From Phycisphaera sp. (GTDB lineage: Bacteria; Planctomycetota; Phycisphaerae; Phycisphaerales; UBA1924), in assembly GCA_025916675.1 (NCBI GenBank), contig CP098402.1, forward strand, positions 55,205 through 119,204: a stretch of 64,000 nucleotides of DNA, given 5' to 3'. A program made the position numbers and the translations under genes. This document shows, one piece after another, positions 5,100 through 64,000 of this stretch. Within the stretch, counting starts at the first letter, position 1, and every line of letters begins with the position of its first letter. Under the pieces are notes generated by a model that saw only the letters and a program-made list of their open reading frames with translations, was not told where the DNA came from and did not search any database.

Positions 5100-5948
5100 T
5101 CAGCCCTTGCTATACCCCGCACCATCACACTCGGCTCGCGCGACGAACGGCGGCTGGCCCGGCTGGATGATCTCGTTCGGGCCGACGAACAAGGTGCCAT
5201 CGCCGGCGAGCTGGTCGTGGAAGGTGCCCAGCACCTGCCGCCGGGTGTCGTCATCGAAGCGCGACAGTGTGTCGCGGCAGAAGATGGCGTCCCACGTGCC
5301 GTACTGCCTCGCGCCGAAGCGGTCGGTCAGGTTGTGGGGCTCGAGGCCGACGAGTTGCAGGATGTCGTCGCTGAGCACCCAGTTGCTAGCGTTCTGCTTG
5401 AAGTAGCGTCGCTTGAGGTGGTCGGGCGTGGCTTGCAGTGCGGCGGTGTCGTAGGTGCCGCTGTTGGCGATGGCCAAGCGCCGCTCGGAGAGGTCGGTGC
5501 CCAGAATCTCGATATGCCAATCCCCAACGCGCACGCCCAGGGTGTTGTGGACGATCATGGCCAGCGTGTAGGGCTCCGCGCCGTTGCCACACCCAGCCGA
5601 CCAGAGGCGCAGGTGCTTGGTGTCCTTGCGGGCCTCGATCAGCTCGGGCAGCACAGTGTGCTGGAAGACCTCCATCTGGGCCTGGTGGTCGAAGAAGGCC
5701 GGTTCGCTCGGGTCGAGCCGTGTGAGGAGTTCCTGGAACTCGTCGTGCTGGTAGGGCCCCATCGAGAGGAACTTGGCGTACTGGGCGAACGTGTCGAGGT
5801 CCAGCTCTCGCAGGCGGCCCACCAGGCGGCATTGCAACCCCTCGCGTTGCTCGGGGTCGAGTCGGACGCTCGCGCGGTCGTGGACGATCCTGGCGAGGGC
5901 GTCGAAGTCGGCGTCGCTCAGGACGGGCGTGGCCTTGGTGCTGGACAT
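5100..5948 (-). CDS. cheR: CheR-type protein-glutamate O-methyltransferase
   Basis: Start at ATG 5948 (MSSTK). N-terminal all-helical CheR_N-like region (FDALARIVHDRASVRLDPEQREGLQCRLVGRLREL) and SAM-binding core (LRLWSAGCGNGAEPYTLAMIV, ILGTDLSERRLAIANSGTY, DAIFCRDTLSRFDDDTRRQVL). Confidence 0.8.
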   Translation of the reverse strand: MSSTKATPVLSDADFDALARIVHDRASVRLDPEQREGLQCRLVGRLRELDLDTFAQYAKFLSMGPYQHDEFQELLTRLDPSEPAFFDHQAQMEVFQHTVLPELIEARKDTKHLRLWSAGCGNGAEPYTLAMIVHNTLGVRVGDWHIEILGTDLSERRLAIANSGTYDTAALQATPDHLKRRYFKQNASNWVLSDDILQLVGLEPHNLTDRFGARQYGTWDAIFCRDTLSRFDDDTRRQVLGTFHDQLAGDGTLFVGPNEIIQPGQPPFVARAECDGAGYSKG

Positions 5949-6085
5949 GACGGGCTCCCTATCGATGGGCGCGCGGCCCAATACCAAACCATCGGTCCGA
6001 AAAGCACCGGGGTTGATCTGGAGTGGTCGATCGGGTTGTGCGGGGGCCGGTGTCCGGCTATCGGACGGGCCAGCGGCCAGAGAAA

Positions 6086-6169
6086 TGCCCAGGAGAGGAC
6101 TCGAACCTCCACCCTGTTTCCAGGACTACCACCTCAAGGTAGCGCGTCTGCCAGTTCCGCCACCTGGGC
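6086..6169 (-). tRNA. tRNA-Leu (anticodon GAG)
   Basis: Reverse complement reads GCCCAGGTGGCGGAACTGGCAGACGCGCTACCTTGAGGTGGTAGTCCTGGAAACAGGGTGGAGGTTCGAGTCCTCTCCTGGGCA. 7-bp acceptor stem, anticodon stem CTACC/GGTAG with loop TTGAGGT, long variable arm typical of Leu, T-loop GGTTCGAGTCC. CCA is not encoded. Confidence 0.9.
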
Positions 6170-6287
6170 AAAGAGGGGCGAGCCGGGATTCCCGGCGCGG
6201 GGTGAGCATAGCGACCGAGCCGTCGGCTGTCGAGCGTACCATGCGCATCGCACGCTCGGCACCGCCGACCAAGCCTGAGGAGGGCCC

Positions 6288-33695: not shown

Positions 33696-35600
33696 TCAAT
33701 CGCAGCCCGCGTCGAAGGCGTTCTGGAACACCAGGAAGTCGAAGATGCTCAGCATGCCGTCGCCGTCGAAATCGGCCCGCAGGTCGCCCTGATCGAATAG
33801 CGTCTGGAAGGCCAGGAAGTCGAAGATGGTCAATTCGCCATCCTCGTCCAAGTCGGCCAGGCAGCGCGGCGGGGCCATGAAGGCGTTGTCACCGATCTCT
33901 TCGCCGATGCTCGTGTGGCGGCGGATGATGGTCGAGAGCGTCTGCTGGTTCACCAGATCCACCATGTCGCCGGGCAGGTAGGCCTCGTACCAGAACCGAT
34001 CGCCATCGCGAAGGCGTGTGAACTGGTCGACCAGCACCGCGTGCAGCGTCGGGCCGACCATCGTGCCATCGAGCTTGTCCTCGACGAGCATGCCCACCCA
34101 CGGATCGATCTGGTCGCAATCAGCGTAGACCGAGGCCAGCTTGTCCTGCATCTGCACGTCGGCGGTGATGTTGCCAAACTCGATCACGCGCGGCAGGCCA
34201 AAGGTCTCACGAATCGTGTTGTAATCCGCCAATCCATGGTCGCGCCCGCGCTGGATATTCAGCGAGGCGAGGTCGAATCCGCCAGCGCCGGGCATGCCGA
34301 ACAGGAAGTTGCGCACGTCGCCGATGATGTGGCCGTCGAGTTGCTGGGCCACGGTCATGGCCATGCCGCGGAGCACGCTGTCGATGCCGTGGTCCTCGAT
34401 GTGCGCGGGCAAGAAGAACGCCTGGGCGAGCGAGAGGTGCCCCTCGTCGGCTTCCGTGCCATCACTATCCATGCGGGGCAGGAACGTCGGCAGCATGGAA
34501 TGGCCCATGCGGAAGCCCGCCGCGGCGAAGACGTTCGAGATGCCGGGATTCACGCCGGCGTCGTACTCGACGTAAGGCGGCAGCGCATCGCCTCCAAGAA
34601 GGATCGGCAGGAACTCGTTGTACGTAATGGCCTGCATGATGCCGCCCACCATGGCGCGGGTGTGCTCGTACACCTCGTCGCCGGTGAAGGTCGGGTTGGC
34701 GGCGCGGATCTGTCGGGCCCAGTAGTTGTGCTCGCGCACGAACAACGTATGGAGGGCCGTCAGCGAGACCTGCTCGTTGCACCGCACATCGCCCGCGAGG
34801 AACAGCGTGGGGTCGCGATGCGTGGGCGCGTTCGGGAAGCCGTTGACGTTGTAGGGCAGCAGGTCGCCGTCGCTGGTCTTGAGCTCGCCCGTGCCGTCGA
34901 GCGTTCGGAGCTCGGCGGCCCGCGGCGCGTCCGAGCCGTACACGTTCGACGCGTCGATGAACGCCGTGATGGCGTTGACCTGCTCGCGCACGCCCGACAC
35001 GAGCTGGTACCCCGAGCGGTCGAGGGAGATGAGCTGAGAGCCGGTGGCACCGGGGTCGAACCATGGGTCGCCCGTCGGCACGACCACGTCGAATTCTTCG
35101 ATGGGTACCGCGATGGGTGTCTCGTCGATGTCGTGGTCGAGGAACTGGCCCCAGAGCCAGAACATGTTCGAGTTGCCCGTCGTGCTGGGCATGAGCACCT
35201 CGTCCTGATCGACCACGGCCTGGCTGATCGCGCGGGCGCTCGACCCATCGCTGCGCGCCGGGATGCGACCAGCGCCATCGCCATACGCCGAGGGCACGCG
35301 CCGGACGAACGGCACGCCAACCGAGCCGTACCACGGGATCACGGGATTGTTAAATCGCCCGTTGATCGTTCGGTACTCGTCGGGGAACATCGCCGGATCG
35401 TCCACGCCCGGGCCATCGGGCATGCCAAGCGGCAGCCAGGGCGCCCAGCCCGTGGAGTACGACCGCTGGACCAGCGAGCTGCGCCGCTCGTCCTGCTCGG
35501 GGCGGTTCTTGATCGGCGAATCCTGCTGCTGCGCCATCAAGGGGGCGGCACCCGCGGCCAGGATGAGCCCGCACGCCGACATCGCACTCTTCGCAATCAT
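33696..35600 (-). CDS. Secreted animal-haem-peroxidase-family protein with duplicated EF-hand/dockerin-like C-terminal module
   Basis: Start ATG 35600 (signal MIAKSAMSACGLILAAGAAPLMAQ). Peroxidase motifs YRTINGRFNN, WGQFLDHDID (distal His), DASNVYGS, FLAGDVRCNEQ, AAAGFRMGHSMLP (proximal His), RGRDHGLADYN, DPWVGMLVED, LRDGDRFWYE. C-terminus CLADLDEDGELTIFDFLAFQTLFDQGDLRADFDGDGMLSIFDFLVFQNAFDAGCD. Confidence 0.8.
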   Translation of the reverse strand: MIAKSAMSACGLILAAGAAPLMAQQQDSPIKNRPEQDERRSSLVQRSYSTGWAPWLPLGMPDGPGVDDPAMFPDEYRTINGRFNNPVIPWYGSVGVPFVRRVPSAYGDGAGRIPARSDGSSARAISQAVVDQDEVLMPSTTGNSNMFWLWGQFLDHDIDETPIAVPIEEFDVVVPTGDPWFDPGATGSQLISLDRSGYQLVSGVREQVNAITAFIDASNVYGSDAPRAAELRTLDGTGELKTSDGDLLPYNVNGFPNAPTHRDPTLFLAGDVRCNEQVSLTALHTLFVREHNYWARQIRAANPTFTGDEVYEHTRAMVGGIMQAITYNEFLPILLGGDALPPYVEYDAGVNPGISNVFAAAGFRMGHSMLPTFLPRMDSDGTEADEGHLSLAQAFFLPAHIEDHGIDSVLRGMAMTVAQQLDGHIIGDVRNFLFGMPGAGGFDLASLNIQRGRDHGLADYNTIRETFGLPRVIEFGNITADVQMQDKLASVYADCDQIDPWVGMLVEDKLDGTMVGPTLHAVLVDQFTRLRDGDRFWYEAYLPGDMVDLVNQQTLSTIIRRHTSIGEEIGDNAFMAPPRCLADLDEDGELTIFDFLAFQTLFDQGDLRADFDGDGMLSIFDFLVFQNAFDAGCD

Positions 35601-35794
35601 GATTAAGCCCTCTCGATCTTCCGCTGTGTATCCGGACGAAGCACCCGATCCATGGAACGCGGGTGATTGTCCCTCGATTGCCTTCCAATATACCCGAAAC
35701 ATCCACCGCGCTCAATACCCCAACGAAAAGCTGCCGCGCAACTCACGCGCGGTGTCGTCACGAACCGAATGACCCGTACAAACGTCCTATAACA

Positions 35795-38621: not shown

Positions 38622-40943
38622 CTAGGGGCACCCCGCCCCAAACGCATTCTGAAAACACAGAAAATCAAAGATGTCCAGCGCCCCCGACCCATCGCAATCC
38701 GCGATGAGGTCGCCCGCGTCGAAGGCGTTCTGGAACACCAGGAAGTCGAAGATCGTCAGCTCGCCGTCGCCGTCCAGGTCGGCGTAGCAGGAGGTGCCCA
38801 CCTCCAGCACCGGCGGGGGCATCAGCGTCACCGGCCGCTCGCCCGTGTCTTCGATCACGATCGTGACCTCGGCCGTCCCCGCGTCGCTGCCGGCGGTGGC
38901 CATCAGGTCGACCTCCCACACGCCGCCGCCCAATGACACGGGTGTGCCCAGGCTGATCGTGGGCGGCCCGCCGATGATGACCCGCGGCACGGCGGTGCTC
39001 ATGTCCGCGACCGCGCCCTGCCAATCGCGCAGCTCGATCCGCAGCGTCGTGCTCTCGCCCGGCGCGATCGTGTCGTCGTCGAGGGTTGCCGAACTCATCA
39101 CGCCGTCGGTCAGGCCAACCAGGTCGCTTCGCCAGTCGTCGAAATCATCTCGGAGCTGGAACACCGGATCGGGGTCGCTGCGGCTCTGGAACGCGACGTT
39201 GAAGTTCATGAAGTAGTCGCCCGCGCCGCAGCCCGGGCCGGAGGCGAACGTGCCGGATTGATTGCCGATGACCGAGACGTTGCTCCCGGTCGTGCCGACC
39301 AGCTCGTCGAAGCCGTCGCCCGTGAGGTCGACCAGCTCGAAGTTGCGCGGCAGCAGGCCCGAGCCGGTGGTGTCGACCAGCGTGAGTGCGCCGCCGTCGA
39401 TGCGGAAGGTCATCAGGTCGGCCGCGGTATCGCTGACGCCCACCACGAACTGCGCCGTGCCAGCCTCGGTCACGCTGCCGATGGCCGCCGAGTGGGGCGT
39501 TCGCGGCAGCGTGGCGGTGACCTCGGTGAACACGCCGCCCCCAAGGCTCACGACCACCGCCTCGCGCGACGAGCGGTTGATGCCCACCAGCTCGTCGGAT
39601 CCATCGCCGTCGAGGTCGCCCGCCTTGAGCGTCGAGGCGTCGATGCTGCTGCTGCCGATGGGCCCGAGCGCGAGCCCGCCCGATCCGTCGTTGAGCACCG
39701 CCACGACGAGCCCCGAGCCCGTCACGTAGCCCACGTCGTCCAGCCCGTCGCCATCCAGGTCGCCCACGGCCCATTGCCGAGGATCGCCGGCGAACATCAG
39801 CGACTCGGCCGTGAAGCCGCCGGCTCCATCGTTGCGCAGCACGGCCGCCTGCCCGCCGCTCGAAGCGCCCACGAACAGATCGCTCGGCCCGCCGTCGCCG
39901 TCTAGATCGATCGCCAGCAGCGCGCCCTCATCCGCGGCGATGCTCGTGCGCACCGGCTCGCCAAAAGCGCCCGCGCCGATACCCACGCCCACCGCGATCG
40001 CGCCGGCGTTGGTGTCGTGGGCGATCAGGTCGTCCACGCCATCGCCCGTCACGTCGAGCAGCAATATCCGCTCGGCCCGGCCGAAGCGCGTGTCGAAGGT
40101 CGGATCCAGCAGCACGGGCATGTCGCCCAGCACGCCGCCCGCGTTGGCGCGCGTCGCGATGCGGTCGCCGAGCTGGTCGGCCACCAGCACGTCGGGCAGC
40201 CCGTCGCCGTGCGTGTCGCCGATCGCCACGTCGCGCACGGGCGGGTCGGCCTGGTAGATGCCGTTGCACGCGTCGGTGTCGCCCGTGCGCGCGATCATCA
40301 TGTACCCGATATCCGCGCTCTTGAGGAATCCCGCCGGCGGCGTACCACACGGGATCGGCAGCGGCGTACACGAGCACCGCGCATCGCCGCCCTTGGCCTG
40401 GGCCGCTTCCATCCCCGCCATCAGCTTCTCGGCCAGGTCGCCCGGCGTCGTGATGATCGCCGCCACCGCGTCGTCGACCACCGCCGGCCCGGTCAGCAGG
40501 TTGCCCTGCACGGCGTAGATCACGCCGTCGATCTCACCGGTCGTCCCACCCGCCCACGCGCCCGCACCCGTGCCGCTGAACGTCGCGGCCAGCCCCGTGG
40601 TGTCGACGATGCCATACTGCCGCGTCTGGTGGCCGGAGTCGAAGGTCGAGAGGTCGGCCAGGATCTCGGAGGGCGTGAGTCCCAGCGCCAGCCCATCGCG
40701 GATGCGCACGCGATTGCGCCCCGACGAGTCCACGAAGCTCTGGGCCGTCGCCGCCCCGACGCCCGTGATGATCACCGGCGTGTTGGCCCGCAGGTCGAAG
40801 CTGGTCAGGCACGTGGCGCTGCCCAGGGCGATCTCGCCCGTGCGGGTGTCCACCAGCAGGATGGACCAGGTGGCTTGGGCCGTCCCGGCGGCACTCAGGA
40901 GGGCGGCGGCAGAGACAGCGGCAAGGGTTCGATAACCACGCAT
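38622..40943 (-). CDS. Secreted DUF1028 (Ntn-hydrolase-fold)-FG-GAP/VCBS repeat protein with dockerin-like C-terminus
   Basis: 773 aa. Signal MRGYRTLAAVSAAALLSAAGTAQA followed by TWSILLVDTRTGEIALGSATC… (DUF1028-like start). Six or more FG-GAP-type Ca loops (GDTHGDGLPDVLVAD, DVTGDGVDDLIAH, DLDGDGGPSDLFVG, GDLDGDGLDDVGYV, GDLDGDGSDELVGI, DLTGDGFDELVGT). C-terminus CYADLDGDGELTIFDFLVFQNAFDAGDLIADCDGSGALDIFDFLCFQNAFGAGCP. Confidence 0.7.
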   Translation of the reverse strand: MRGYRTLAAVSAAALLSAAGTAQATWSILLVDTRTGEIALGSATCLTSFDLRANTPVIITGVGAATAQSFVDSSGRNRVRIRDGLALGLTPSEILADLSTFDSGHQTRQYGIVDTTGLAATFSGTGAGAWAGGTTGEIDGVIYAVQGNLLTGPAVVDDAVAAIITTPGDLAEKLMAGMEAAQAKGGDARCSCTPLPIPCGTPPAGFLKSADIGYMMIARTGDTDACNGIYQADPPVRDVAIGDTHGDGLPDVLVADQLGDRIATRANAGGVLGDMPVLLDPTFDTRFGRAERILLLDVTGDGVDDLIAHDTNAGAIAVGVGIGAGAFGEPVRTSIAADEGALLAIDLDGDGGPSDLFVGASSGGQAAVLRNDGAGGFTAESLMFAGDPRQWAVGDLDGDGLDDVGYVTGSGLVVAVLNDGSGGLALGPIGSSSIDASTLKAGDLDGDGSDELVGINRSSREAVVVSLGGGVFTEVTATLPRTPHSAAIGSVTEAGTAQFVVGVSDTAADLMTFRIDGGALTLVDTTGSGLLPRNFELVDLTGDGFDELVGTTGSNVSVIGNQSGTFASGPGCGAGDYFMNFNVAFQSRSDPDPVFQLRDDFDDWRSDLVGLTDGVMSSATLDDDTIAPGESTTLRIELRDWQGAVADMSTAVPRVIIGGPPTISLGTPVSLGGGVWEVDLMATAGSDAGTAEVTIVIEDTGERPVTLMPPPVLEVGTSCYADLDGDGELTIFDFLVFQNAFDAGDLIADCDGSGALDIFDFLCFQNAFGAGCP

Positions 40944-41092
40944 ATTGAGGCTCCTGCGGGTGGAAGTCCCGGGCAGTTGGTCTTGTCACCACAGCCTACC
41001 ACAAACCCGCACCGGAGCCAAGGGCGATTCCCCGCATCCGGCCCGCCCCATACCATCCTCTTTGGGCCCTTCAACACGCCCCAGGAGGCACC

Positions 41093-41713: not shown

Positions 41714-41732
41714 AGAACGACACAACCGAGTC

Positions 41733-42323
41733 AACGAGCCCCTCGCGCAAGCGAGGGGAATAGACCCCCAAGCACCCCACGCGTCCAACACTCGAAGATG
41801 CCCCTCCTCGCCTACCTCCTCACCTGGACCACCTACGGCACCCGGGTCCACGGCGACGAACGAGGAAGCGTCGACGACGCCCACAACACGCCCGGCACCG
41901 ACGCCCTGCTCCCCGACCCATCACGCGAAGCGCGTGTCGCCGTGTCGATGGCGGAGGGCCCGTTCGTGCTGGATGGGCAGATGCGAGAACTGGTGACGAG
42001 GGCGATCGAGGACCACGCCAGGCTGCGCGGCTGGCGCATCGACGCGCTCAATGTCCGCTCGAACCACGTCCACGTCGTCATCGCCGCGCCGAGCCACGCG
42101 CCCGCGGTCGTCGTCGCGCAGCTCAAGTCGTGGGCGACGCGTCGGCTTCGCGAGAGCGGGGCGATCGGGACGCGCAAGCGTGTGTGGACGAAGATGGCCA
42201 GCACGCGATACATCAACACCGAGGCGTCCCGGCTCGCGGCGGTCGACTACGTACGCAATCATCAGTAGTGGGCACGGGTGGCCTTCGGGCGTCCATTCCC
42301 CTCGCTCGCGCGAGGGGCTCGTT
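41733..42323 (+). mobile_element. RAYT (REP-associated tyrosine transposase-like) unit flanked by inverted REP-like hairpins
   Basis: 28-nt AACGAGCCCCTCGCGCAAGCGAGGGGAA (41733-41760) and its near-exact reverse complement TTCCCCTCGCTCGCGCGAGGGGCTCGTT (42296-42323) bracket the Y1-transposase-like ORF. Each copy contains an 8-bp GC hairpin CCCCTCGC/GCGAGGGG. Confidence 0.65.
41798..42268 (+). CDS. IS200/RAYT-like HUH Y1 transposase family protein
   Basis: 156 aa. N-terminus AYLLTWTTYGTRVHGDERGS, HUH motif RSNHVHVVI, C-terminal Tyr motif AAVDYVRNHQ. Size typical of RAYT. Confidence 0.7.
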   Translation: MPLLAYLLTWTTYGTRVHGDERGSVDDAHNTPGTDALLPDPSREARVAVSMAEGPFVLDGQMRELVTRAIEDHARLRGWRIDALNVRSNHVHVVIAAPSHAPAVVVAQLKSWATRRLRESGAIGTRKRVWTKMASTRYINTEASRLAAVDYVRNHQ

Positions 42324-53843: not shown

Positions 53844-54878
53844 CTACTTCTGATAGATCGGCAGGTACCGCTTGGGCATTTGCAAGACGATGAGTGCCAT
53901 GGCCGTCCCATAAGCCGTCCCTACCGTGCGATCGGGCCATGCGCCGTTGCCGTCTTGCAGGTCGATCAACTCCCGCCGAGCCGCGGGCCACCACGTGCGC
54001 CACGCGTCTCCGCCGGCCAAGAACATGGCCTGCACGGCGTAATAGTGCCCGTAGTAGAAGTACCCGCGCCGCAAGCCCTGCCCCGGCAGCGCCTCGCGGA
54101 TGAGGTAGTTCACCCCCGGATCGATCGCCTCGTCGGTGAATTCGCCGGCGTAGTACAACGTGGCCACGCCCGCGGCCGACCTGGGCCACGCGCTCGACCC
54201 GTTCCGCTCCTGGTAGCGAAACCCACCGTCGGGGTTCTGGCACCGCTTGACGTAGTCCACCGCGTTGTCGATGACCTCGCTGCTCACCTCGATGCCCGCG
54301 TTCCGGGCCGAGCGCAACGCCATCACCTGGCAGATAGTGACGCTCACGTCCGCGTCGGTCGGCACGGGGTTGTACCGCCAGCCGCCCTCGTCGTTCTGCG
54401 AGCGTTCGATCAAGCGCACGGCTTTCACCAGCGCCTCGTGCAGACGCTCCCGCTGGGCCTCGTCGCCCCCGCTCATGCCGTAGACCTCGCCCAGGAACAG
54501 CGCGGCGAACCCGTGCCCGTACATCGGGCTGGGCGCCTGGTCATCGGCCAGCAGCCCGCTCTCGCCCGATCGATCGAGCACGTACTCGAGCGCCTTGCGG
54601 ATGACCTCTCCGTGCTGCCCACGGTCGGGCATCTGCCCGTCGGCCATGAACGCGAGGGCCGCCAGCGACGTGACCGCGATCCCGCGTCCCCACGCGCCGT
54701 CGCCGAACGACCCGTCGGGGTTCTGCTGGCTGGCCAGGAACGTGAGCCCGAGCGCCACGCTCTCGTCGAGCTCGGGCGTGATCTCCACCATCGGGTCGGC
54801 GGGCACCGGGGCTTCCTGCGCCAGAGCCGCCACGCCGCACAGCGCCACCATCGCCAACACACACGCCACTCGTTTCAA
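53844..54878 (-). CDS. Secreted prenyltransferase/squalene-oxidase-repeat (alpha/alpha-toroid) protein
   Basis: Signal MKRVACVLAMVALCGVAALAQ. Repeated QW-like motifs LASQQNPDGSFG, ERSQNDEGGWRY, KRCQNPDGGFRY, LQDGNGAWPD. Start overlaps the upstream stop. Confidence 0.7.
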   Translation of the reverse strand: MKRVACVLAMVALCGVAALAQEAPVPADPMVEITPELDESVALGLTFLASQQNPDGSFGDGAWGRGIAVTSLAALAFMADGQMPDRGQHGEVIRKALEYVLDRSGESGLLADDQAPSPMYGHGFAALFLGEVYGMSGGDEAQRERLHEALVKAVRLIERSQNDEGGWRYNPVPTDADVSVTICQVMALRSARNAGIEVSSEVIDNAVDYVKRCQNPDGGFRYQERNGSSAWPRSAAGVATLYYAGEFTDEAIDPGVNYLIREALPGQGLRRGYFYYGHYYAVQAMFLAGGDAWRTWWPAARRELIDLQDGNGAWPDRTVGTAYGTAMALIVLQMPKRYLPIYQK

Positions 54879-57800
54879 CGCCCAGCCTCCTCGGCCAACC
54901 GGCGGTAGTACGCCTCGGTGATCGCGCGGTACACCGCGCTGTAGGCGTCGGACGAGCCCTGCCGCAACGCCTCACGCACGCGCGGCGGCAGAGCGCCCCA
55001 CGTGGCGCCTACGGCAGCCTCGTCGCCCAGTGCCCCGCCCTGCTGCGGCCGGCCTTGCACACCTTGCGGATCGGGATTCTGCTGTGTCTCCTGCATGTCG
55101 CCCTGTTGTTGCTGTTGCTGCTGGGGGGCCTGTTGCTGTTGCTGCTGGTTCTGTTGTTGCTGTTGCTGCTGCTGTTGTTGCTGGTTCTGCTGGTTGCGGG
55201 CAGCTTCGATCAATTGGTCGAGCGCGGCAATCGCCTCTTCCTGCACACGCTGCGTTGCCAGGCCAGTCTCGCGATCGCCATCGAGCCGCGTCGACGCCCG
55301 CTCCATCAGGTCGACAGCACGCAGGAACGCGCCCGCCAGCCCGCCCTCGAGTTCGCGTTCGAGGTCGCCGTCGGGCCGCTCGCTGACATCGCCGGGGTTG
55401 GTGATGCCGAGCAACTCGTCGAGCGTGGGCTCATCGCCACTCTGCTGGGGCTCGCTCTGCTCAGGCTCGCTTGGCTGCGTGTCCTGCTCCTGCATACCAA
55501 AACCCAGCGGCCACCGCGGCGCCGCGCCGGCGGGGTCTTGCTGCCCAGATTGCTCGTTCAAGCGCTGCACGAGCTCGCTGGCCGCCTCGCTCAACTCACG
55601 CTGCAAGAGCCCCGCGTCCTCGATCCGTTCGGGCCCGAGCACGCCGTCGTCGATCGCCCGCGTCATCTGCGCCGCCTCGACCTGCATGGTCCGAAGCAAC
55701 AGAAGCTCGGCCATCGGCGGCACGACGCCCTCTTCTTCTCCCTGCTGGCCGGGCTGGCCCGAGCCCTGGTTGCCGCCCTCGTTCGCGTCGGCGAACTCCC
55801 GCTCGCCGCGCTGCGTGCTGCTGTCGAGCGCCTCGATCAGCCCGCGCAGCACCGCGATGATCGTGTCCTGCGAGTACAGCGTGTCGCCCGACACCGTGCC
55901 GCCCTCGAGCAAATCGCTCGCCCGCTCGGCCGCGCGATCGATGCGATCGTGCGCGAGCCGGAACGCCGTCGCCTCGTCGAGGCCCTCGGTGCTCTTGCGC
56001 ACGTCGTCGAGCTCGGCGTGTAGCTTCTTCTGCCGCCCACCCAGGCGGCGCACCAGGATCTGCTGCCGCCGCGACAGCTCCTGGTCGGCGTACGACGCGG
56101 TCTCGTCGCGCAGGGTCGCCTGGGCGGCCAGCGCCTCGGCATAGGCCTTGCGCAGCTCCTGCCGCTGGCGTTGCAGCTCGCGCTGGCGGGCCTGCTCGTC
56201 GAGCACCCGAGCCTCGTCGAGTGCGGCTTGCAGGTGCTCCAGGCTCTCACGCTCTCGCAACAAGGCCTCGGCGTCGTCGAGCGGGTTCGACCGCAGCGCG
56301 ACGATCGACGCGTCCTGCGACTCGGCCGCATCCAGCAGCTTGCGTGCGATCCCGGCCAGCGCTTCGTCGCCCGCGGCCCGATCCTGGGCCAGCGCCGCCG
56401 TGTCACGCGAGATGCCGATCATCGCCACGTCGAGCCCGTCGAACGTGCGCGCCGCCTGCGCCGCTTCGAGGCGGTTGATCTCGGTCTCCTGCCGCGCGAT
56501 CAACGCCTCGATCGCCGCCGAAAGCTCGGCCAGCACGCGCCGCAGTTCCTTGTCGCGGTCCTGCCCGGCCTCGTCCAGCCGCTCGGTCACGTCCTCGAGC
56601 GCGTCGAGCGCCCGCTGCTGGCTCTGCTGGGCCGACGACATCTGGTTCTGCTCGGCCTGCTGGGCGGCCTGTTGCATCTCACGCGGGGCCTCGCCCTCGC
56701 GCCCGCGCTCGGCCGCCTCGCGCAGCGTCTCGGCGCGAGCCGGATCGCTCTCGGCGATCGCCTCGGCCCGGTCGGCGAGCTGGTCGAGCGCCTCCTGGGC
56801 GCGTCTCGCAAGCTCGGCCTGGCGCTGGGCGATCTGCTCCACGCGCGAGCGGTCCTCGGGCGAGAGCTGGTCGAGCGACTGGCCGGCGGTCTGCGTCTCG
56901 GCCTGGGCCGTTTGTTCCTGGAGTTCACGCTGCTGCTCGATCAACCGATCGAGGTCACGCCGCGCGAGCCACTCGTCCTCGTCGCGCGAGAGTAATCCGA
57001 CTAATCCACCCAACTCGTCACGAACCCGCTCTTGCGCGCGCTCGGCGGCCTCTCGGGCCCGCTGCTGCTCGTCCTCGCTCTGCGCCCGGCCCGATTGCCC
57101 GAGCGACGCCTCGGCCCGGTCCGATTGCTCGGCCGCCGCGTTCAGGTGCTCCTCGGCCAGCCGCAAGAGCTCGTCGAGTTCCTGGTCGTCCAGCGCGTTG
57201 CGCTCGGCCCGCTCGGCCACCTCGCGCACCGTCTCAGCCTGGCGGGAGAGCTGGCTGGTCAGGTCACCCTGATCGCGCGCCAGGTCGCCGTCATCGTCGG
57301 TGTTGCGGGCCTCGCCAAGCTGGGCCGCCCCATCGAGCACGTCGCCCTGGGCGCGATCGAGGCGCTTGGCGCTCTCGCGCACGGCGGCCATCTCGGCGCG
57401 CAACTGGTCGACGAGTTCGCTCTCGCCGATGATCCGGATCCGACGCGTGGCCGACTCGACCGCCTTGCCGCCACGGAGGTCGGCGGCCAGCGCGGTCACG
57501 AGCAACTCATCACCCGGATCCAGGTCGAATCGTGTCAGTTCGACGACCGCCGCCGCGCGCGCTTCGAGGGGGGCGGTTGTGTCGCTCCATCGAGCAAGCT
57601 CCATGGTCTCGCCCACCGGCTCGGGCGGCGCACCCTGGCTGCCCGCGGGCGGCGTCGCGCGTTCGGCAACCAGCACCACCGAGACCAGCCCAAAATCGTC
57701 ACGGCCTTCGCCCACCATCGGCAGCGTGGCCGTCGGCAGCACCGACTCATCCTGCGCCGGTTCCAGCACGGCCACCGTCGGATCGGCGTCGGCCAGCACG

Positions 57801-59092
57801 TCCAGGGCGATCACCAGCGGCCGCCTGGACGTGATGCCAAGCTCGTCACCGAGTTCGATTGAGAGCGATGCCGGCGTGGATGCTTCGAGCCGAACCACAG
57901 CACCGAGGCCGTCGGCCATGGGCTCGATGCTCACGTTTTGTTCGCTTCCTGTGCCGTCGGAGACGCCCATCGAGAGGTCGGGCGTCGCGGCCGTGTTGAA
58001 TCGCAGGTCGATCTCGACCACCGAGCCGGCCAGCACCGGGCCCAGCACGGCGGTATCCTCTCCGCCCAAAGCCAGTGGCATGCGTTCGCTCTGGCGGCCA
58101 AGCCCCAGCACGCGCGCGCCCGAGGCGTCCTGGGCGTAGGCCGGCGGTTCGACACGCGCGCTGGCTTGGATCACGCGAGGCGGCCGCACAAGTTCGATCG
58201 TCGTGGTGTCGGTCCGGTCGTCGCTGGTCTCCAGCCACAACTCCATCGTCACGCGCTGGGTCTGCCGCAGCGCTTCGGCGGCCGGATTGACCAAGCGCTC
58301 GAACACTTCGGGGCCCGCGTTGCTGGCGGGATCGCCCTGGCTGGTGAGCGCGAGCTTCTGGGGCGCTCCGCCGTCGAGGCGGTACCACGCCTCGACGCGC
58401 GTGCGGCCGACCGGCCGATCGGTGCGTGTCAGCAGGCCACGGATAGCGATCGGATCGCCCAGCGGGTGGAACCTCGGCAGTTCGGCGAGTTCTACGGCCG
58501 TCCGCGACGGCCACTTCACACCGGTCCACGGCGCGAGCACGCGCGTGGCGCCCAGCCTGGCCATGTCGGGTTGCATGCCGGCGTACGTCGCGATCGACGC
58601 GACGACCAGCAGGCACACGCCAAGGGCGCGGAGCGTGGGCGGGCGCTTCATCAGGTCGGGCAGCGAGTCACGCGAGAGGTTGTCCAGCAATGGCTCGTAT
58701 CGCGGCTCGAGCGTGCCGCTGCGGGCAAGATCGGTCGCGCTGGCCAGCCGCCCCTTCAGGTCGGGCCGGCCGCTCTCGAGTCGTAGCGCGACATCGGTCA
58801 GGCTCGGGCTCATCCGCAACGCGGGCCACACAAACTGCACCAGCGCCCAGCCGCCGCCGGCGAGGGCCCCGAAGAGCGCCGCGTAGCGCACCCATTGGGG
58901 CAGCCGGGCCGCGAAGTCGAACAGGCCCACCAGCGCCAATCCCGCGAGCACCGCCGCGATCGTCCAGCCCAGACGACGCGAGACCAGCAGCAGCCTCGCC
59001 TCACGCCGGATCCGCGACAGGCGGCCCAGCAGCTTCCTGGCGCTTGCGTGTCCGGTTTGCGTGCTGGCCATGGCGTGGGCTCCGCGGGGCAA
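54875..59092 (-). CDS. Giant (1405-aa) membrane-anchored coiled-coil protein, DUF4175-like
   Basis: N-terminal TM pair (LGWTIAAVLAGLALVGLFDFAA…YAALFGALAGGGWALVQFVW), as I remember for DUF4175/TIGR02302. Beta-rich middle section. About 600 aa of Ala/Glu/Arg/Gln coiled-coil. A poly-Gln tract near the C-terminus. Confidence 0.7.
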   Translation of the reverse strand: MPRGAHAMASTQTGHASARKLLGRLSRIRREARLLLVSRRLGWTIAAVLAGLALVGLFDFAARLPQWVRYAALFGALAGGGWALVQFVWPALRMSPSLTDVALRLESGRPDLKGRLASATDLARSGTLEPRYEPLLDNLSRDSLPDLMKRPPTLRALGVCLLVVASIATYAGMQPDMARLGATRVLAPWTGVKWPSRTAVELAELPRFHPLGDPIAIRGLLTRTDRPVGRTRVEAWYRLDGGAPQKLALTSQGDPASNAGPEVFERLVNPAAEALRQTQRVTMELWLETSDDRTDTTTIELVRPPRVIQASARVEPPAYAQDASGARVLGLGRQSERMPLALGGEDTAVLGPVLAGSVVEIDLRFNTAATPDLSMGVSDGTGSEQNVSIEPMADGLGAVVRLEASTPASLSIELGDELGITSRRPLVIALDVLADADPTVAVLEPAQDESVLPTATLPMVGEGRDDFGLVSVVLVAERATPPAGSQGAPPEPVGETMELARWSDTTAPLEARAAAVVELTRFDLDPGDELLVTALAADLRGGKAVESATRRIRIIGESELVDQLRAEMAAVRESAKRLDRAQGDVLDGAAQLGEARNTDDDGDLARDQGDLTSQLSRQAETVREVAERAERNALDDQELDELLRLAEEHLNAAAEQSDRAEASLGQSGRAQSEDEQQRAREAAERAQERVRDELGGLVGLLSRDEDEWLARRDLDRLIEQQRELQEQTAQAETQTAGQSLDQLSPEDRSRVEQIAQRQAELARRAQEALDQLADRAEAIAESDPARAETLREAAERGREGEAPREMQQAAQQAEQNQMSSAQQSQQRALDALEDVTERLDEAGQDRDKELRRVLAELSAAIEALIARQETEINRLEAAQAARTFDGLDVAMIGISRDTAALAQDRAAGDEALAGIARKLLDAAESQDASIVALRSNPLDDAEALLRERESLEHLQAALDEARVLDEQARQRELQRQRQELRKAYAEALAAQATLRDETASYADQELSRRQQILVRRLGGRQKKLHAELDDVRKSTEGLDEATAFRLAHDRIDRAAERASDLLEGGTVSGDTLYSQDTIIAVLRGLIEALDSSTQRGEREFADANEGGNQGSGQPGQQGEEEGVVPPMAELLLLRTMQVEAAQMTRAIDDGVLGPERIEDAGLLQRELSEAASELVQRLNEQSGQQDPAGAAPRWPLGFGMQEQDTQPSEPEQSEPQQSGDEPTLDELLGITNPGDVSERPDGDLERELEGGLAGAFLRAVDLMERASTRLDGDRETGLATQRVQEEAIAALDQLIEAARNQQNQQQQQQQQQQQNQQQQQQAPQQQQQQQGDMQETQQNPDPQGVQGRPQQGGALGDEAAVGATWGALPPRVREALRQGSSDAYSAVYRAITEAYYRRLAEEAGR
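55102..55194 (-). repeat. CAG/CAA (poly-Gln) microsatellite-like tract inside the giant ORF
   Basis: The + strand reads CTGTTGTTGCTGTTGCTGCTG…, encoding NQQNQQQQQQQQQQQNQQQQQQAPQQQQQQQ on the minus strand. Confidence 0.85.
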
Positions 59093-61856: not shown

Positions 61857-62804
61857 TTAGCCGCCGCCTCCGGGGTCGGCCGGGTCGCTGGAGACGATGC
61901 GGCCGCCGACGACCGCGCTCACGGGCTGCTGGCCGAAGCCGTCGATCGTGGAAATGCCGGTGTCGACGCCCATGGTGACGTAGCGGCGTCCCTCGACCAC
62001 AGCGCTGATGCGGCGCGTGGGCCAGTAGGTGTAGCCGACGATTCCGCGGTGCACGTAGTCGGGCGCCCGCACGATGATCGTGCCCTTGAAGTAGCGGATC
62101 GAGCCACGGGTGTTCTCGATCCAGTGATCGGGCTCGACCAGGTCTTGGATGAGGGTGAGGATCTCTTCGGCACGCTCCTCGATGGGCTGCTCCTCGGTTT
62201 CACCCCCGCCCTGATCCTGGAACGGGCTCTGCCCGCCGCCGCCCTGGCTGCTCTGGAGGGCCTGCTGGAGGTCAATCTGCGGAACCTCGGGATACTCGGG
62301 CAGCACCAACAGCAGGTCGTTGATGTCGTAGATCACGGTGCGGTTGAAGCGGTTCAGGCGGGTGGTGGGGCCGACCTGCATCTCGCCCCACTCGGTCATC
62401 TGCCAGTTGTTGCCGCTGCCGAAGGCGTCCTCGGCCTTGGTCAGCACGCGCTCGAGCACGGTGATCGCCGGCAGGTTCTCGACCTTCAGGCTGATGATCT
62501 GCTCGGGGTCGAGGCCCACGCCTGAGCGCTCGTCGAACCAGAAGATCTCGAGGTTGGCGCCGGTCTGATCGACGATGTAGTCCATGACGGCGCGGAGTGT
62601 CAGGTCCTGGAAGTCGGCGGTGATGGGCTTCATCATGCGCGACAGCGTGATGGCCTCGGGCTTGGCGCTTGTCCTGGTGTACTGCGCGGGGGCGCCGGCT
62701 TCGCCCGTAGCGGGGGTTGTCTGGGCGACCGCCGGGCCGGCCAGGAGCGCGGCCAAGCCGAGGGCGAGCGCGGGAGTGGTGCGGGACGAACTGGGGCGAC
62801 GCAT
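61857..62804 (-). CDS. Secreted hypothetical protein
   Basis: Start ATG 62804. Signal MRRPSSSRTTPALALGLAALLAGPAVAQ. N-terminal segment LTLRAVMDYIVDQTGANLEIFW is reminiscent of secretin/STN-type N domains. IYDINDLLLVLPEYPEVP motif. The upstream part of ORF 61857..63038 was rejected. Confidence 0.55.
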   Translation of the reverse strand: MRRPSSSRTTPALALGLAALLAGPAVAQTTPATGEAGAPAQYTRTSAKPEAITLSRMMKPITADFQDLTLRAVMDYIVDQTGANLEIFWFDERSGVGLDPEQIISLKVENLPAITVLERVLTKAEDAFGSGNNWQMTEWGEMQVGPTTRLNRFNRTVIYDINDLLLVLPEYPEVPQIDLQQALQSSQGGGGQSPFQDQGGGETEEQPIEERAEEILTLIQDLVEPDHWIENTRGSIRYFKGTIIVRAPDYVHRGIVGYTYWPTRRISAVVEGRRYVTMGVDTGISTIDGFGQQPVSAVVGGRIVSSDPADPGGGG

Positions 62805-63360
62805 GGCGGCCTCCTTTATCGGACGGTTGAACGGGTGGGATGCGGGCACCCGTTTGCCGGCTCGGTCGGGCCGCCACTCGTCGTGGGGCCCTTGGTTTCC
62901 TGCCCGGATGTCGGTGCGGCCGGGGGTGTGGCCGCTGGTCATCCTATCGGCGGCTCCGGGCCGCCGGTTGTGGGCTCCATCTGTGTACCGCTGAACCGGG
63001 CAGGCGTTGCAGGGTGGCGGGCGATGGTGTGCCGCCATGGGATTGGACGCCCGAGGCCCGTGGTTTGTTCCGTGATGGGTGGAAGTACGCCGATGCGAGC
63101 CGGACGGGGCGGCAAGCTACAGGCGGAAACTGCGCGTTCGGCGAAAAAAATCGGGATTACGCGGATCGGGCAAAGTCCCCGGCTTGGGGAGCCGAAACAA
63201 GGGGTGCCAGCCAGGGCAGGAGGCCGGCTGGCACGTTCATCACTTTGGGTTATTGAGACACGAGGTTGGGCCCCGATCGGGGTTGCGCGATGGTCGCGCG
63301 CTCTTGGGGGCTCGGTTGCCCGCCGGCGACGGTTGGCGCGACATAAGGAGAGTTGTTCGC

Positions 63361-64000
63361 ATGGACAGCCTGATCAACGGCGCCCCGAGCGCCACCCTGT
63401 TTGCCGGCTCCCTCGGCACCCCGTTCGTTTCGTCGTTTGCTTCTCCGTTCAGCAGCCCATTCAACAGCGCCGGTTTCGGCCAGATTGGAATCCCCATGTT
63501 CAACAACAGTTTTGGCCCGTTCTCGACCCCGTTCGCCGGCCAGTTTGGCGGCCCCATTGGTGGCACTTTTGGCAGCCCGATCGCGAGCCAGTTTGGCGGC
63601 CAGTTCGGTTCGCCCACCACGCCGTTCGCCAGTTCGCCCATCGGCGGCTTGGGCTTCGGCCAGCCGGCCTTTGGCCAGCCCATCTGGAACCAGGGCTTCA
63701 ACACCCCGTTCGGTGGCCAGTTCGGTTTTGCTGGCGGCCAGTTTGGTAGCCCCGTGACCAGCCAGTTCGGCTCGTTCGGTTCGCCGTTCGGGTCGACCGG
63801 CATCTCGCCGTTTGGCGGCCAGTTCAACACCCCGTTTGCCAGCAACTTCGGCGGCCTGCCGACTGGCTTGTCCACCGGCGATTGGTCGGCCCTCGGCGGT
63901 CGCTTCGGTTCGTTCTCGACGCCCTTCGGCTCGTCGTTCGGCACGCCCTTTGGCGGGCAGAGCTTCAACCAGTTCGGCCTGAGCCCCTGGGGCTTCAACG
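63361..64000 (+). CDS. Phe-Gly repeat low-complexity protein (5' partial; runs off the window)
   Basis: Not in the supplied ORF track because no stop is reached. ATG 63361 is preceded by AAGGAG 10 nt upstream. Frame 1 has near-uniform G/C third positions. Translates to MDSLINGAPSATLFAGSLGTPFVSSFASPFSSPFNSAGFGQIGIPMFNNSFGPFSTPFAGQFGGPIGGTFGSPIASQFGGQFGSP…, with about 20 FG dipeptides in 213 codons. Confidence 0.6.
   Translation, partial: MDSLINGAPSATLFAGSLGTPFVSSFASPFSSPFNSAGFGQIGIPMFNNSFGPFSTPFAGQFGGPIGGTFGSPIASQFGGQFGSPTTPFASSPIGGLGFGQPAFGQPIWNQGFNTPFGGQFGFAGGQFGSPVTSQFGSFGSPFGSTGISPFGGQFNTPFASNFGGLPTGLSTGDWSALGGRFGSFSTPFGSSFGTPFGGQSFNQFGLSPWGFN

Follow-up and report, generated by a model that had tools for sequence, protein, structure and literature searches.

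The FG Gene and Its Reading Frame

The DNA analysed here, hereafter called the window, is a stretch of 64,000 nucleotides from Phycisphaera sp. (GenBank assembly GCA_025916675.1, contig CP098402.1, positions 55,205 to 119,204 of the forward strand), and its right-hand edge carries a previously unannotated gene for a disordered protein rich in Phe–Gly (FG) dipeptides, hereafter called the FG gene. The window stops in the middle of this gene, so that positions 63361..64000 on the plus strand hold the N-terminal 213 codons plus 1 nt of a gene of 426 codons. Translation shows no stop in frame +1 from the ATG at 63361 through the window edge at 64000, and the product of the window part begins MDSLINGAPSATLFAGSLGTPFVSSFASPF. 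The Shine–Dalgarno (SD) sequence AAGGAG is located 10 nt 5' of the ATG at 63345..63350 on the plus strand, and the whole block (A/G)GGAG-N-GTTCGCATG around it is conserved. Both the unlisted gene starting at this ATG and its SD sequence had been proposed in an initial annotation of the window, and translation, orthologues and substitution rates all uphold them.

The open reading frame (ORF) of the FG gene occupies the same divergent position in eight Phycisphaerales genomes, whose loci were fetched by way of the conserved divergent neighbour. The start M(D/N)SLI(N/S) behind (A/G)GGAG...GTTCGCATG is common to at least eight orthologues, and the stop after GTTINVSQR(D/E)AA is identical in position across all eight. 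Frame +1 contains no stop codon in any of them (8/8), whereas the antisense and shifted frames contain 1–27 stops in the orthologues. The ratio of nonsynonymous to synonymous substitution rates (dN/dS, Nei–Gojobori) is 0.31–0.56 in the sense direction and 1.09–1.53 in the codon-complementary antisense direction. Since the orthologues keep only frame +1 open and dN/dS is lower in the sense direction, frame +1 can be taken as the coding frame, and on this comparative evidence the FG ORF is a real gene. The G/C content of the FG gene is 0.50, 0.62 and 0.84 at the first, second and third (GC3) codon positions, respectively. The G/C-rich third positions pointed out in the initial annotation are thus present but do not help to define the frame, because the antisense ORF at 63240..63998 (−) shares its third codon positions with frame +1 and has a GC3 of 0.81. 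That one of the ORFs listed for this region (62835..63749 +, 63401..63757 + and 63240..63998 −) is the real product, or that the region is non-coding, has a vanishingly small probability: the high GC3 of 63240..63998 (−) and two antisense frames free of stops within the window part would fit it, but the stops in the orthologues and the dN/dS values reject the antisense and out-of-frame ORFs, and the conserved start, SD sequence, stop and terminator belong to frame +1 only.

Two antisense ORFs, 63240-63998 (−) and the codon-complementary 63361-63999 (−), lie open over the gene only because it avoids codons ending in A (GC3 0.84). Long antisense ORFs of this kind, disrupted in orthologues, are a typical shadow-ORF artefact of high-GC DNA. 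The NCBI model of the JB060 orthologue (P0001, L001:9855-11119) takes an internal Met as its start and thereby loses 49 codons, giving 372 amino acids rather than 421, and the conserved start MNSLIN with its SD sequence lies upstream of the annotated start. The JB064 assembly has a run of N within its FG gene (L005:~1984-2000 region), and many metagenome contigs carrying protein P0008 (L057-L065) end about 165–180 nt past its stop codon. The ends of the Logan and JGI contigs with P0008 fail to match the predicted transcript, which makes this comparison uninformative. Gene callers overlook or shorten genes of this family, and assemblies are prone to break there.

Composition and Disorder of the Full-Length Protein

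The full length of the gene was taken from contig L070 (639-1919, −), which was found through an exact look-up of the neighbour protein (P0015). Exact DNA matching against GTDB species representatives and JGI metagenomes gave no hit to the genome of the window. This contig is 100% identical to window positions 62700-64000 over 1301 nt and runs past the window end; the complete gene has 426 codons, and its product ends GTTINVGQRDAA. The 213 residues of the window part include 37 Phe (17.4%) and 47 Gly (22.1%), together with 14.6% Ser and 10.8% Pro. They contain 21 FG dipeptides, or 9.9 per 100 residues, and three charged residues (D2, D174 and R181; 1.4%). These figures agree with the hand counts of the initial annotation (about one Phe in six residues, about 20 FG dipeptides, three charged residues). 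The FG count is far above that of 2000 composition-preserving shuffles (8.2 ± 2.3, maximum 16, z = 5.5). The low charge extends over the whole protein, which has 8 charged residues in 426 (1.9%), no Lys and no Cys, 6.3 FG per 100 residues, 24% of Phe, Ile, Leu, Val and Met together (FILVM) and 10% Pro. Four of the eight charged residues fall in the final 18 residues, SELRNAAGTTINVGQRDAA, and the charges are concentrated in a small set of short conserved sequences, DWSxxGGRFGSF and the tail ELRxxxGTTINV(S/G)QR(D/E)AA-COOH. Residues 45-260 are dense in (T/S)PFG, GQFG and GFG motifs with about 10–14 FG per 100, and the C-terminal half is rich in Gly, Ser, Thr, Asn, Pro and Gln with sparser Phe. 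The median spacing from one Phe to the next is 4 residues. Tandem Repeats Finder detects only weak and short DNA repeats in the gene, indicating degenerate sequence of low complexity rather than a tandem array of recent origin.

The N-terminus, MDSLINGAPSATLFAGSLGTPF, contains no basic residue. The absence of an evident signal peptide, claimed in the initial annotation, is borne out by hydropathy, as no signal peptide or transmembrane segment is seen by a Kyte–Doolittle scan that serves as a heuristic only (highest 19-residue score 0.95 for the window part and no more than 1.13 across the family). For the orthologue P0002, which is 75% identical in the part that aligns, AlphaFold2 (AF2) with the alignment of the family as input gives a mean predicted local distance difference test (pLDDT) score of 40, and the secondary structure of this model is limited to two 4-residue helices in the last 17 amino acids. 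Neither the sequence of the full-length 426-residue protein nor the AF2 model of P0002 contains a folded or anchoring domain, and the C-terminus bears no sortase, PEP-CTERM or transmembrane anchor. The FG product is an intrinsically disordered protein without a signal peptide, a transmembrane segment or a folded domain.

Relatives and the Wider Positional Family

The FG protein has no match in Pfam, NCBIfam, PHROGs, PADLOC or the PDB, and searches of PDB sequences, PHROGs and PADLOC are also empty for the neighbours of the FG gene. A word-indexed search of 5.8 billion proteins yields one match with the window fragment and nine with the family profile. With HMMER, an exhaustive profile search across 1.84 billion representatives yields 12 matches, of which 10 are family members or fragments and two are spurious matches to unrelated, eukaryote-like low-complexity repeat proteins; no nucleoporin is among them. 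A scan of 241 million metagenome records finds four loci. The relatives of the FG protein thus number only about 10–15, and every named source is Phycisphaerales or Planctomycetota. Their alignment consists of conserved islands, namely the N-terminal 45 residues including GFGQIGxP, then DWSxxGGRFGSF, NPTLNQxQxGF, LPTQLVAGQF, GQPIFQ and the invariant tail, divided by FG-rich spacers of variable length.

A wider survey with a profile of the neighbour protein fetched 80 loci, 77 of which have enough upstream sequence. At 36 of these 77 Phycisphaerales loci, the neighbour is directly preceded by a divergent ORF for a low-complexity protein that is uncharged and rich in aromatic residues, and this pairing persists where the neighbour is only 40–50% identical. 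The 25 members outside the FG subfamily are 124–453 amino acids long with a median charged fraction of 0.016 and a median of 19.5% Phe, Trp and Tyr; they have a strong SD sequence, a GC3 of 0.7–0.97 and frequently an MTTT... start. BLAST finds no alignment between them and the FG subfamily. These unannotated members (L084-L151, L076) come in lineage-dependent flavours (WN, FN, YP and PW), and some are Cys-rich with CC motifs. The protein of L085 is a near-perfect tandem array of the 16-residue unit TPWNGFGSFSPSNFSG. The extreme C-terminus is the only sequence conserved across the whole positional family: R(D/E)(A/V)A is present in 18 of the 25 non-FG members and AA in 20, as in GIGLNREAA, LNLNRDAA, MNLKRDAA and NIGLKRDVA.

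Since the aromatic residue and its motif vary in the wider family, FG is, as far as these sequences tell, a subclade-specific flavour and not the conserved feature of the family. The family-wide traits, read from the sequences, are uncharged polar spacers set with aromatic 'stickers', the ...R(D/E)AA tail, a σ28-like promoter and the divergent pairing. Judged by these searches, the low-complexity family is restricted to Phycisphaerales and fits no described protein family or system.

The Locus and the Divergent Partner Gene

The gene order is the same in all FG loci: OsmC (−), a protein of 315 amino acids with a signal peptide (−), a spacer of about 520–600 nt, the FG gene (+) and guaA (−). 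An intrinsic terminator lies directly past the stop codon of the FG gene and guaA converges from the other side, and hence the FG gene is monocistronic. The divergent intergenic spacer of 556 nt (62805..63360) is conserved in length and in part in sequence. On its far side, at 61857..62804 on the minus strand, lies the partner gene, which encodes the 315-residue protein with a signal-peptide-like N-terminus. The upstream region and the divergent secreted-protein gene of the initial annotation are therefore both in place.

The partner protein is 78% identical to the JB060 neighbour and has at least 258 homologues across Phycisphaerales, with no Pfam domain, including Secretin_N and STN. Its AF2 model (pLDDT 67) finds its best PDB fold matches in the N-domains of the secretin GspD (3ezj and 3oss), with E-values of 2e-3 to 1e-2, probabilities of 0.75–0.97 and weak template modelling (TM) scores of 0.18–0.33. 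These matches and the signal-peptide-like N-terminus liken the partner to secretin N0/N1 domains, but the partner lacks the secretin pore domain, has no match to the Secretin_N or STN families and gives weak fold scores. The partner is predicted, from a weak fold match, to be a periplasmic secretin-N-like protein.

Putative Promoter and Leader Elements

The spacer carries a σ28 (FliA)-like promoter motif at 63171..63198 on the plus strand, consisting of CAAAGTCC (63171-63178), a 12-nt spacing and GCCGAAAC (63191-63198). Mean identity of the spacer over 10 orthologues is 58%, with the best-conserved blocks 60–200 nt 5' of the ATG, and all 10 have CAAAG and CCGA.A unchanged and equally spaced. 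The motif, whose family-level form is CAAAGT-N-GCCGA(T/A)A, occurs once per locus, at this site only; the window has it, as do 15 of the 16 loci compared, and it is missing from L010, where the FG gene is absent. The motif lies at −186 to −203 in the FG genes. In distant members, CAAAGT-N-(G/C)CCGATA is found about 210 nt 5' of the ATG, in 7 of 23 by a strict pattern compared with 0.9 expected in shuffles, and L076 and L100 have near-matches.

The σ28 consensus is TAAAGTTT-n11-GCCGATAA (PMC2859248), from which the window motif deviates by C at the first position of the −35 element and by its 12-nt spacing. The −10 element of the JB060 orthologue, GCCGACAT, is identical to that of the aer promoter of E. 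coli (PMC2859248). A related pattern, TGAAGTC-N-GCCCGATAG, precedes the flagellin gene at −200 in JB060 and at −198 in 3_bin.40. No σ70-like promoter is detectable in the spacer at 62805-63360, and no σ28-like motif lies upstream of the CheR methyltransferase gene (5103-6125, −), which stands immediately downstream of tRNA-Leu(GAG) (6085-6170, −). The presence of CheR in the window indicates, at the level of gene content, that the host organism has chemotaxis, and flagellin and FliM genes are found in syntenic loci of relatives. Two further candidates were rejected: GGGCAAAGTCC, a similarity near the JB060 flagellin gene, is not conserved as a shared motif, and GCCGATAG, which precedes the partner gene on the minus strand (62944-62951), has no acceptable −35 element.

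Two elements follow the promoter motif. A hairpin (63204..63234, +), placed where the leader is predicted to begin, has the stem GTGCCAGCC/GGCTGGCAC and the loop AGGGCAGGAGGCC with a conserved GCAGGA; 82.5% of its cells are paired compared with at most 50% when the partner strand is slid, compensatory changes occur in 4 of its 8 pairs, and the observed covariation score is reached in 7 of 500 shuffles. A GC-rich leader element at 63268..63301 (+), formed by the hairpin GGGCCCCGATCGGGG and, at 63285-63299, the near-invariant palindrome GCGCGATGGTCGCGC, has the highest conservation of any 30-column bin in the spacer alignment (mean identity 0.83), and the palindrome could be an operator or an RNA element. 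No Rfam family is found in the spacer or leader. The FG transcription unit accordingly comprises a promoter-like motif, about 160 nt of leader, a strong SD sequence, 426 codons and an intrinsic terminator.

Possible Function of the FG Protein

The flagellar-type promoter, the C-terminal tail and the secretin-N-like neighbour point to an envelope or motility context and not to a nuclear-pore-like one. Our best guess at the function of the FG protein is that of a cohesive protein of the flagellar regulon, and this function together with the gene unit described above makes the best overall explanation, which we hold tentatively, at somewhat less than even probability. Its steps are not equally secure. 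FliA, the flagellar sigma factor, would transcribe the FG gene as a late motility-regulon gene, which the promoter sequence makes fairly probable. By analogy with Nup98-type and sticker–spacer domains, the FG protein may then act by multivalent cohesion of its aromatic Phe residues, and at this step, in which the protein would form a gel-like, condensed or adhesive substance and not work as a folded machine, the chances for and against appear evenly balanced. The conserved termini would serve as recognition elements, leaving the middle free to drift. The final step, export through the flagellar type III gate and action with the partner in the envelope or at the cell surface, is again suggested by analogy and is possible but rather doubtful. 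The products of late σ28 genes are typically substrates of the flagellar type III export gate that lack a signal peptide, and since the partner is extracytoplasmic as well, this route is favoured over others.

Several observations weigh against the proposed flagellar-regulon role. The cohesive or phase-separating behaviour is deduced, by analogy, from composition alone, and the full-length protein is both more hydrophobic and richer in Pro than Nup98-type FG domains (FILVM 24% compared with 13–17%, Pro 10% compared with 3–9%). None of the approximately 50 family members has a signal peptide, which fits a cytoplasmic protein equally well. The promoter assignment is a consensus match in sequence that was partly defined post hoc: the flagellin comparison covers three in-clade loci, and its pattern was relaxed after an initially negative look. 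The flagellin genes of L011 and also L019 have no clear match to TGAAGTC-N-GCCCGATAG, and the strict pattern detects the promoter motif in only those 7 of 23 distant members. C in place of T at the start of the −35 element lowers the activity of the E. coli aer promoter about 10-fold (PMC2859248). Synteny within the FG subfamily could be plain inheritance, and at 41 of the 77 loci, including L010 and L075, a homologue of the neighbour stands without a low-complexity gene. The neighbour family is thus larger than the low-complexity family, and paralogy or loose linkage is possible; paralogues of the neighbour, L010 and L150, occur in one metagenome-assembled genome.

Among the alternatives, a cytoplasmic condensate scaffold survives best. 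The FG protein would phase-separate through Phe–Phe contacts and recruit partners through its conserved short motifs, and its C-terminal -AA tail could be a docking or turnover signal. Such a scaffold agrees with the absence of a signal peptide or transmembrane segment from every member, with a charge and an FG density within the range of self-condensing Nup98 FG domains and with the full disorder of the orthologue modelled by AF2. However, the one gene whose linkage is conserved encodes a protein with a signal peptide and a periplasmic fold of the secretin-N-like kind, no gene for a cytoplasmic partner is linked, and the FG protein, being charge-free with 24% hydrophobic residues, would tend to aggregate in the cytoplasm. 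The Cys-rich distant members with CC motifs are also easier to reconcile with an oxidising extracytoplasmic location. A scaffold of this kind is therefore unlikely, although it deserves to be kept in mind, and a purely cytoplasmic condensate is considered less likely than export, with perhaps one chance in four. A transfer-messenger RNA gene, sought with a C-terminal -AA degron in mind, was not found in the locus sequences examined.

More ambitious than the flagellar-regulon role proposed above, and improbable, is a previously undescribed, order-wide two-gene module in which a rapidly evolving, charge-free aromatic low-complexity protein and a ring-forming, secretin-N-like periplasmic protein are both switched on with the late flagellar genes. 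Export of the disordered protein would need no signal peptide, and this protein would make a cohesive gel of the FG type that works as a selective plug or barrier, or as an adhesive, in or on the cell envelope; in the FG subclade it would be a convergent look-alike of Nup98 FG domains.

Slightly less probable still is export by another route independent of a signal peptide, for example type I secretion through an uncleaved C-terminal signal, which would make the FG protein an extracellular adhesive or matrix protein. The family-wide conservation of the extreme C-terminus (R(D/E)(A/V)A in 18 of 25, AA in 20 of 25) suits such a signal, although the tail is not diagnostic, and the protein is unfolded, Gly-rich, lacking an N-terminal signal and, in the subfamily of the window, Cys-free. 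No genes for an ATP-binding cassette (ABC) transporter, a membrane fusion protein or TolC are linked to it in any locus examined, the full-length protein contains no RTX GGxGxD repeats, and the σ28-like promoter points to the flagellar system instead.

A true analogue of FG nucleoporins, in which the FG domain fills a channel such as a ring of the partner as a selective permeability barrier, is very unlikely. The FG density and charge depletion match the Nup98 type, the partner fold resembles the ring-forming N-domains of secretins, and the host is a planctomycete, a member of a phylum with a history of claims of pore-like structures (bioRxiv 10.1101/076430). Nevertheless, the FG protein has no anchor domain and no Nup homology, scaffold genes are absent from its surroundings, the wider family does not conserve FG, and there is no Sec or Tat route that would take the protein into the periplasm. 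Furthermore, the partner has no secretin pore domain, and its fold match is weak (E about 1e-3, TM 0.18–0.33). The resemblance to FG nucleoporins drawn in the initial annotation thus stands for composition, in both FG density and charge, and fails for homology, anchor domain, conservation of FG and pore-like context. The opposite possibility considered there, an ordinary Gly-rich secreted surface repeat protein of known family, is already largely refuted and barely credible: low complexity rich in Gly, Ser, Thr and Pro is common in surface proteins and the divergent neighbour is secreted, but no known family in Pfam or NCBIfam matches, there is no sortase, PEP-CTERM or transmembrane anchor and no signal peptide, and the conserved SD sequence and start imply that the N-terminus is not mis-called, the upstream frame having a stop at 63073 with no conservation of the intervening translation.

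Charge-depleted, Phe-driven cohesive domains have so far been a hallmark of the nuclear pore barrier of eukaryotes, and the bacterial family described here shows a like composition and, throughout an order of Planctomycetota, keeps its place in the genome, its promoter motif and its C-terminal tail. Should its behaviour follow its composition, the family would be an independent and genetically tractable instance of an 'FG phase', and the two-gene module, if true, would mean that bacteria have reinvented the FG-phase principle. Control by FliA, if true, would extend the flagellar (σ28) regulon by a new kind of gene, and a functional handle on a widespread, unannotated periplasmic secretin-N-like protein would be gained if the proposed role of the FG protein is true.

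Other Features of the Window

The remaining window is mostly housekeeping, with genes for GroEL, FtsH, Mfd, SAICAR synthetase and ABC and Mla transporters. The ORF at 33699-35711 (−) matches the animal haem peroxidase family very strongly (PF03098, E 3e-142), which is unusual for bacteria. The ORF at 54875-59092 (−), of 1405 amino acids, has no Pfam match, is syntenic in relatives (1396–1405 amino acids) and adjoins a prenyltransferase/squalene-hopene-cyclase-like gene at 53847-54971. The ORF at 41714-42265 (+) encodes an IS200-like Y1 transposase. The ORF at 38625-40985 (−), of 787 amino acids, combines DUF1028 with FG-GAP repeats; FG-GAP is a folded β-propeller repeat unrelated to the FG-rich protein.

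Comparison with Known Systems

FG domains of Nup98 contain a median of 9 FG per 100 residues with 2.5% charged residues, 13–17% FILVM and 3–9% Pro, in spacers of Gly, Thr, Ser, Ala, Asn, Gln and Pro (PMC4283134). The FG protein shares with them its disorder over several hundred residues, its Gly/Ser/Thr/Asn/Gln/Pro spacers, an FG density of 9.9 per 100 in the window half and a charged fraction of 1.4–1.9%. Motifs of its GFGQ and PFG types are present in certain Nup98 orthologues as well, for example GFGQ in T. brucei Nup158 (PMC4283134). In contrast, there is no sequence homology between the two, and the FG protein has no GLEBS, autoproteolytic or coiled-coil anchor domain. Its Phe is much denser, its FG-rich content is confined to the N-terminal ~260 amino acids, FG is not kept in the wider bacterial family, and its σ28-like promoter and periplasmic partner have no counterpart in the Nup98 type. 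The compositional analogy to Nup98 FG domains is therefore quantitative and real, while homology to nucleoporins and a nuclear-pore-like function are unsupported. In the literature, no description of bacterial FG-domain-like proteins of this kind was found; the sole earlier candidate from planctomycetes that turned up, the 'possible FG repeat protein' of Gemmata (bioRxiv 10.1101/076430), with 5 FGs and a predicted β-barrel, was set aside as unrelated.

Regularly spaced aromatic residues in uncharged sequence rich in Gly, Ser, Asn and Gln are also found in the prion-like domains of the FUS/hnRNPA1 type and in the curli protein CsgA, and by analogy with these, self-association of the FG protein would be expected from its composition. 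Unlike FUS and hnRNPA1, the FG family uses Phe, or Trp and Tyr in distant members, and has no RGG or RNA-binding modules. Unlike CsgA, the FG protein has no Sec signal, no imperfect repeats of the curli type and no Pfam match, and its abundant Pro disfavours amyloid.

The FG protein matches no domain of FlgM (PF04316), flagellin, FlgK/L or hook-associated proteins in Pfam or NCBIfam, and its size and composition are unlike those of any known flagellar protein. It nevertheless resembles the late σ28 flagellar export substrates, such as the disordered FlgM, in a promoter-like motif of the TAAAGTTT-n11-GCCGATAA class, in the absence of a cleavable signal peptide, in its disordered N-terminus and in its conserved termini around a variable middle. 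The signal-less, disordered N-terminus is a necessary but not a specific feature of substrates of flagellar type III export, and no gene for an export chaperone is linked to the FG gene. The 'flagellar co-expressed determinants' of Campylobacter are a comparable late σ28-dependent class alongside FlgM. The FG gene also shares with flagellin genes of the same genomes a monocistronic arrangement and a long leader, and in JB060 and 3_bin.40 the candidate flagellin motif, detected by the relaxed pattern, likewise stands about 200 nt before the ATG.

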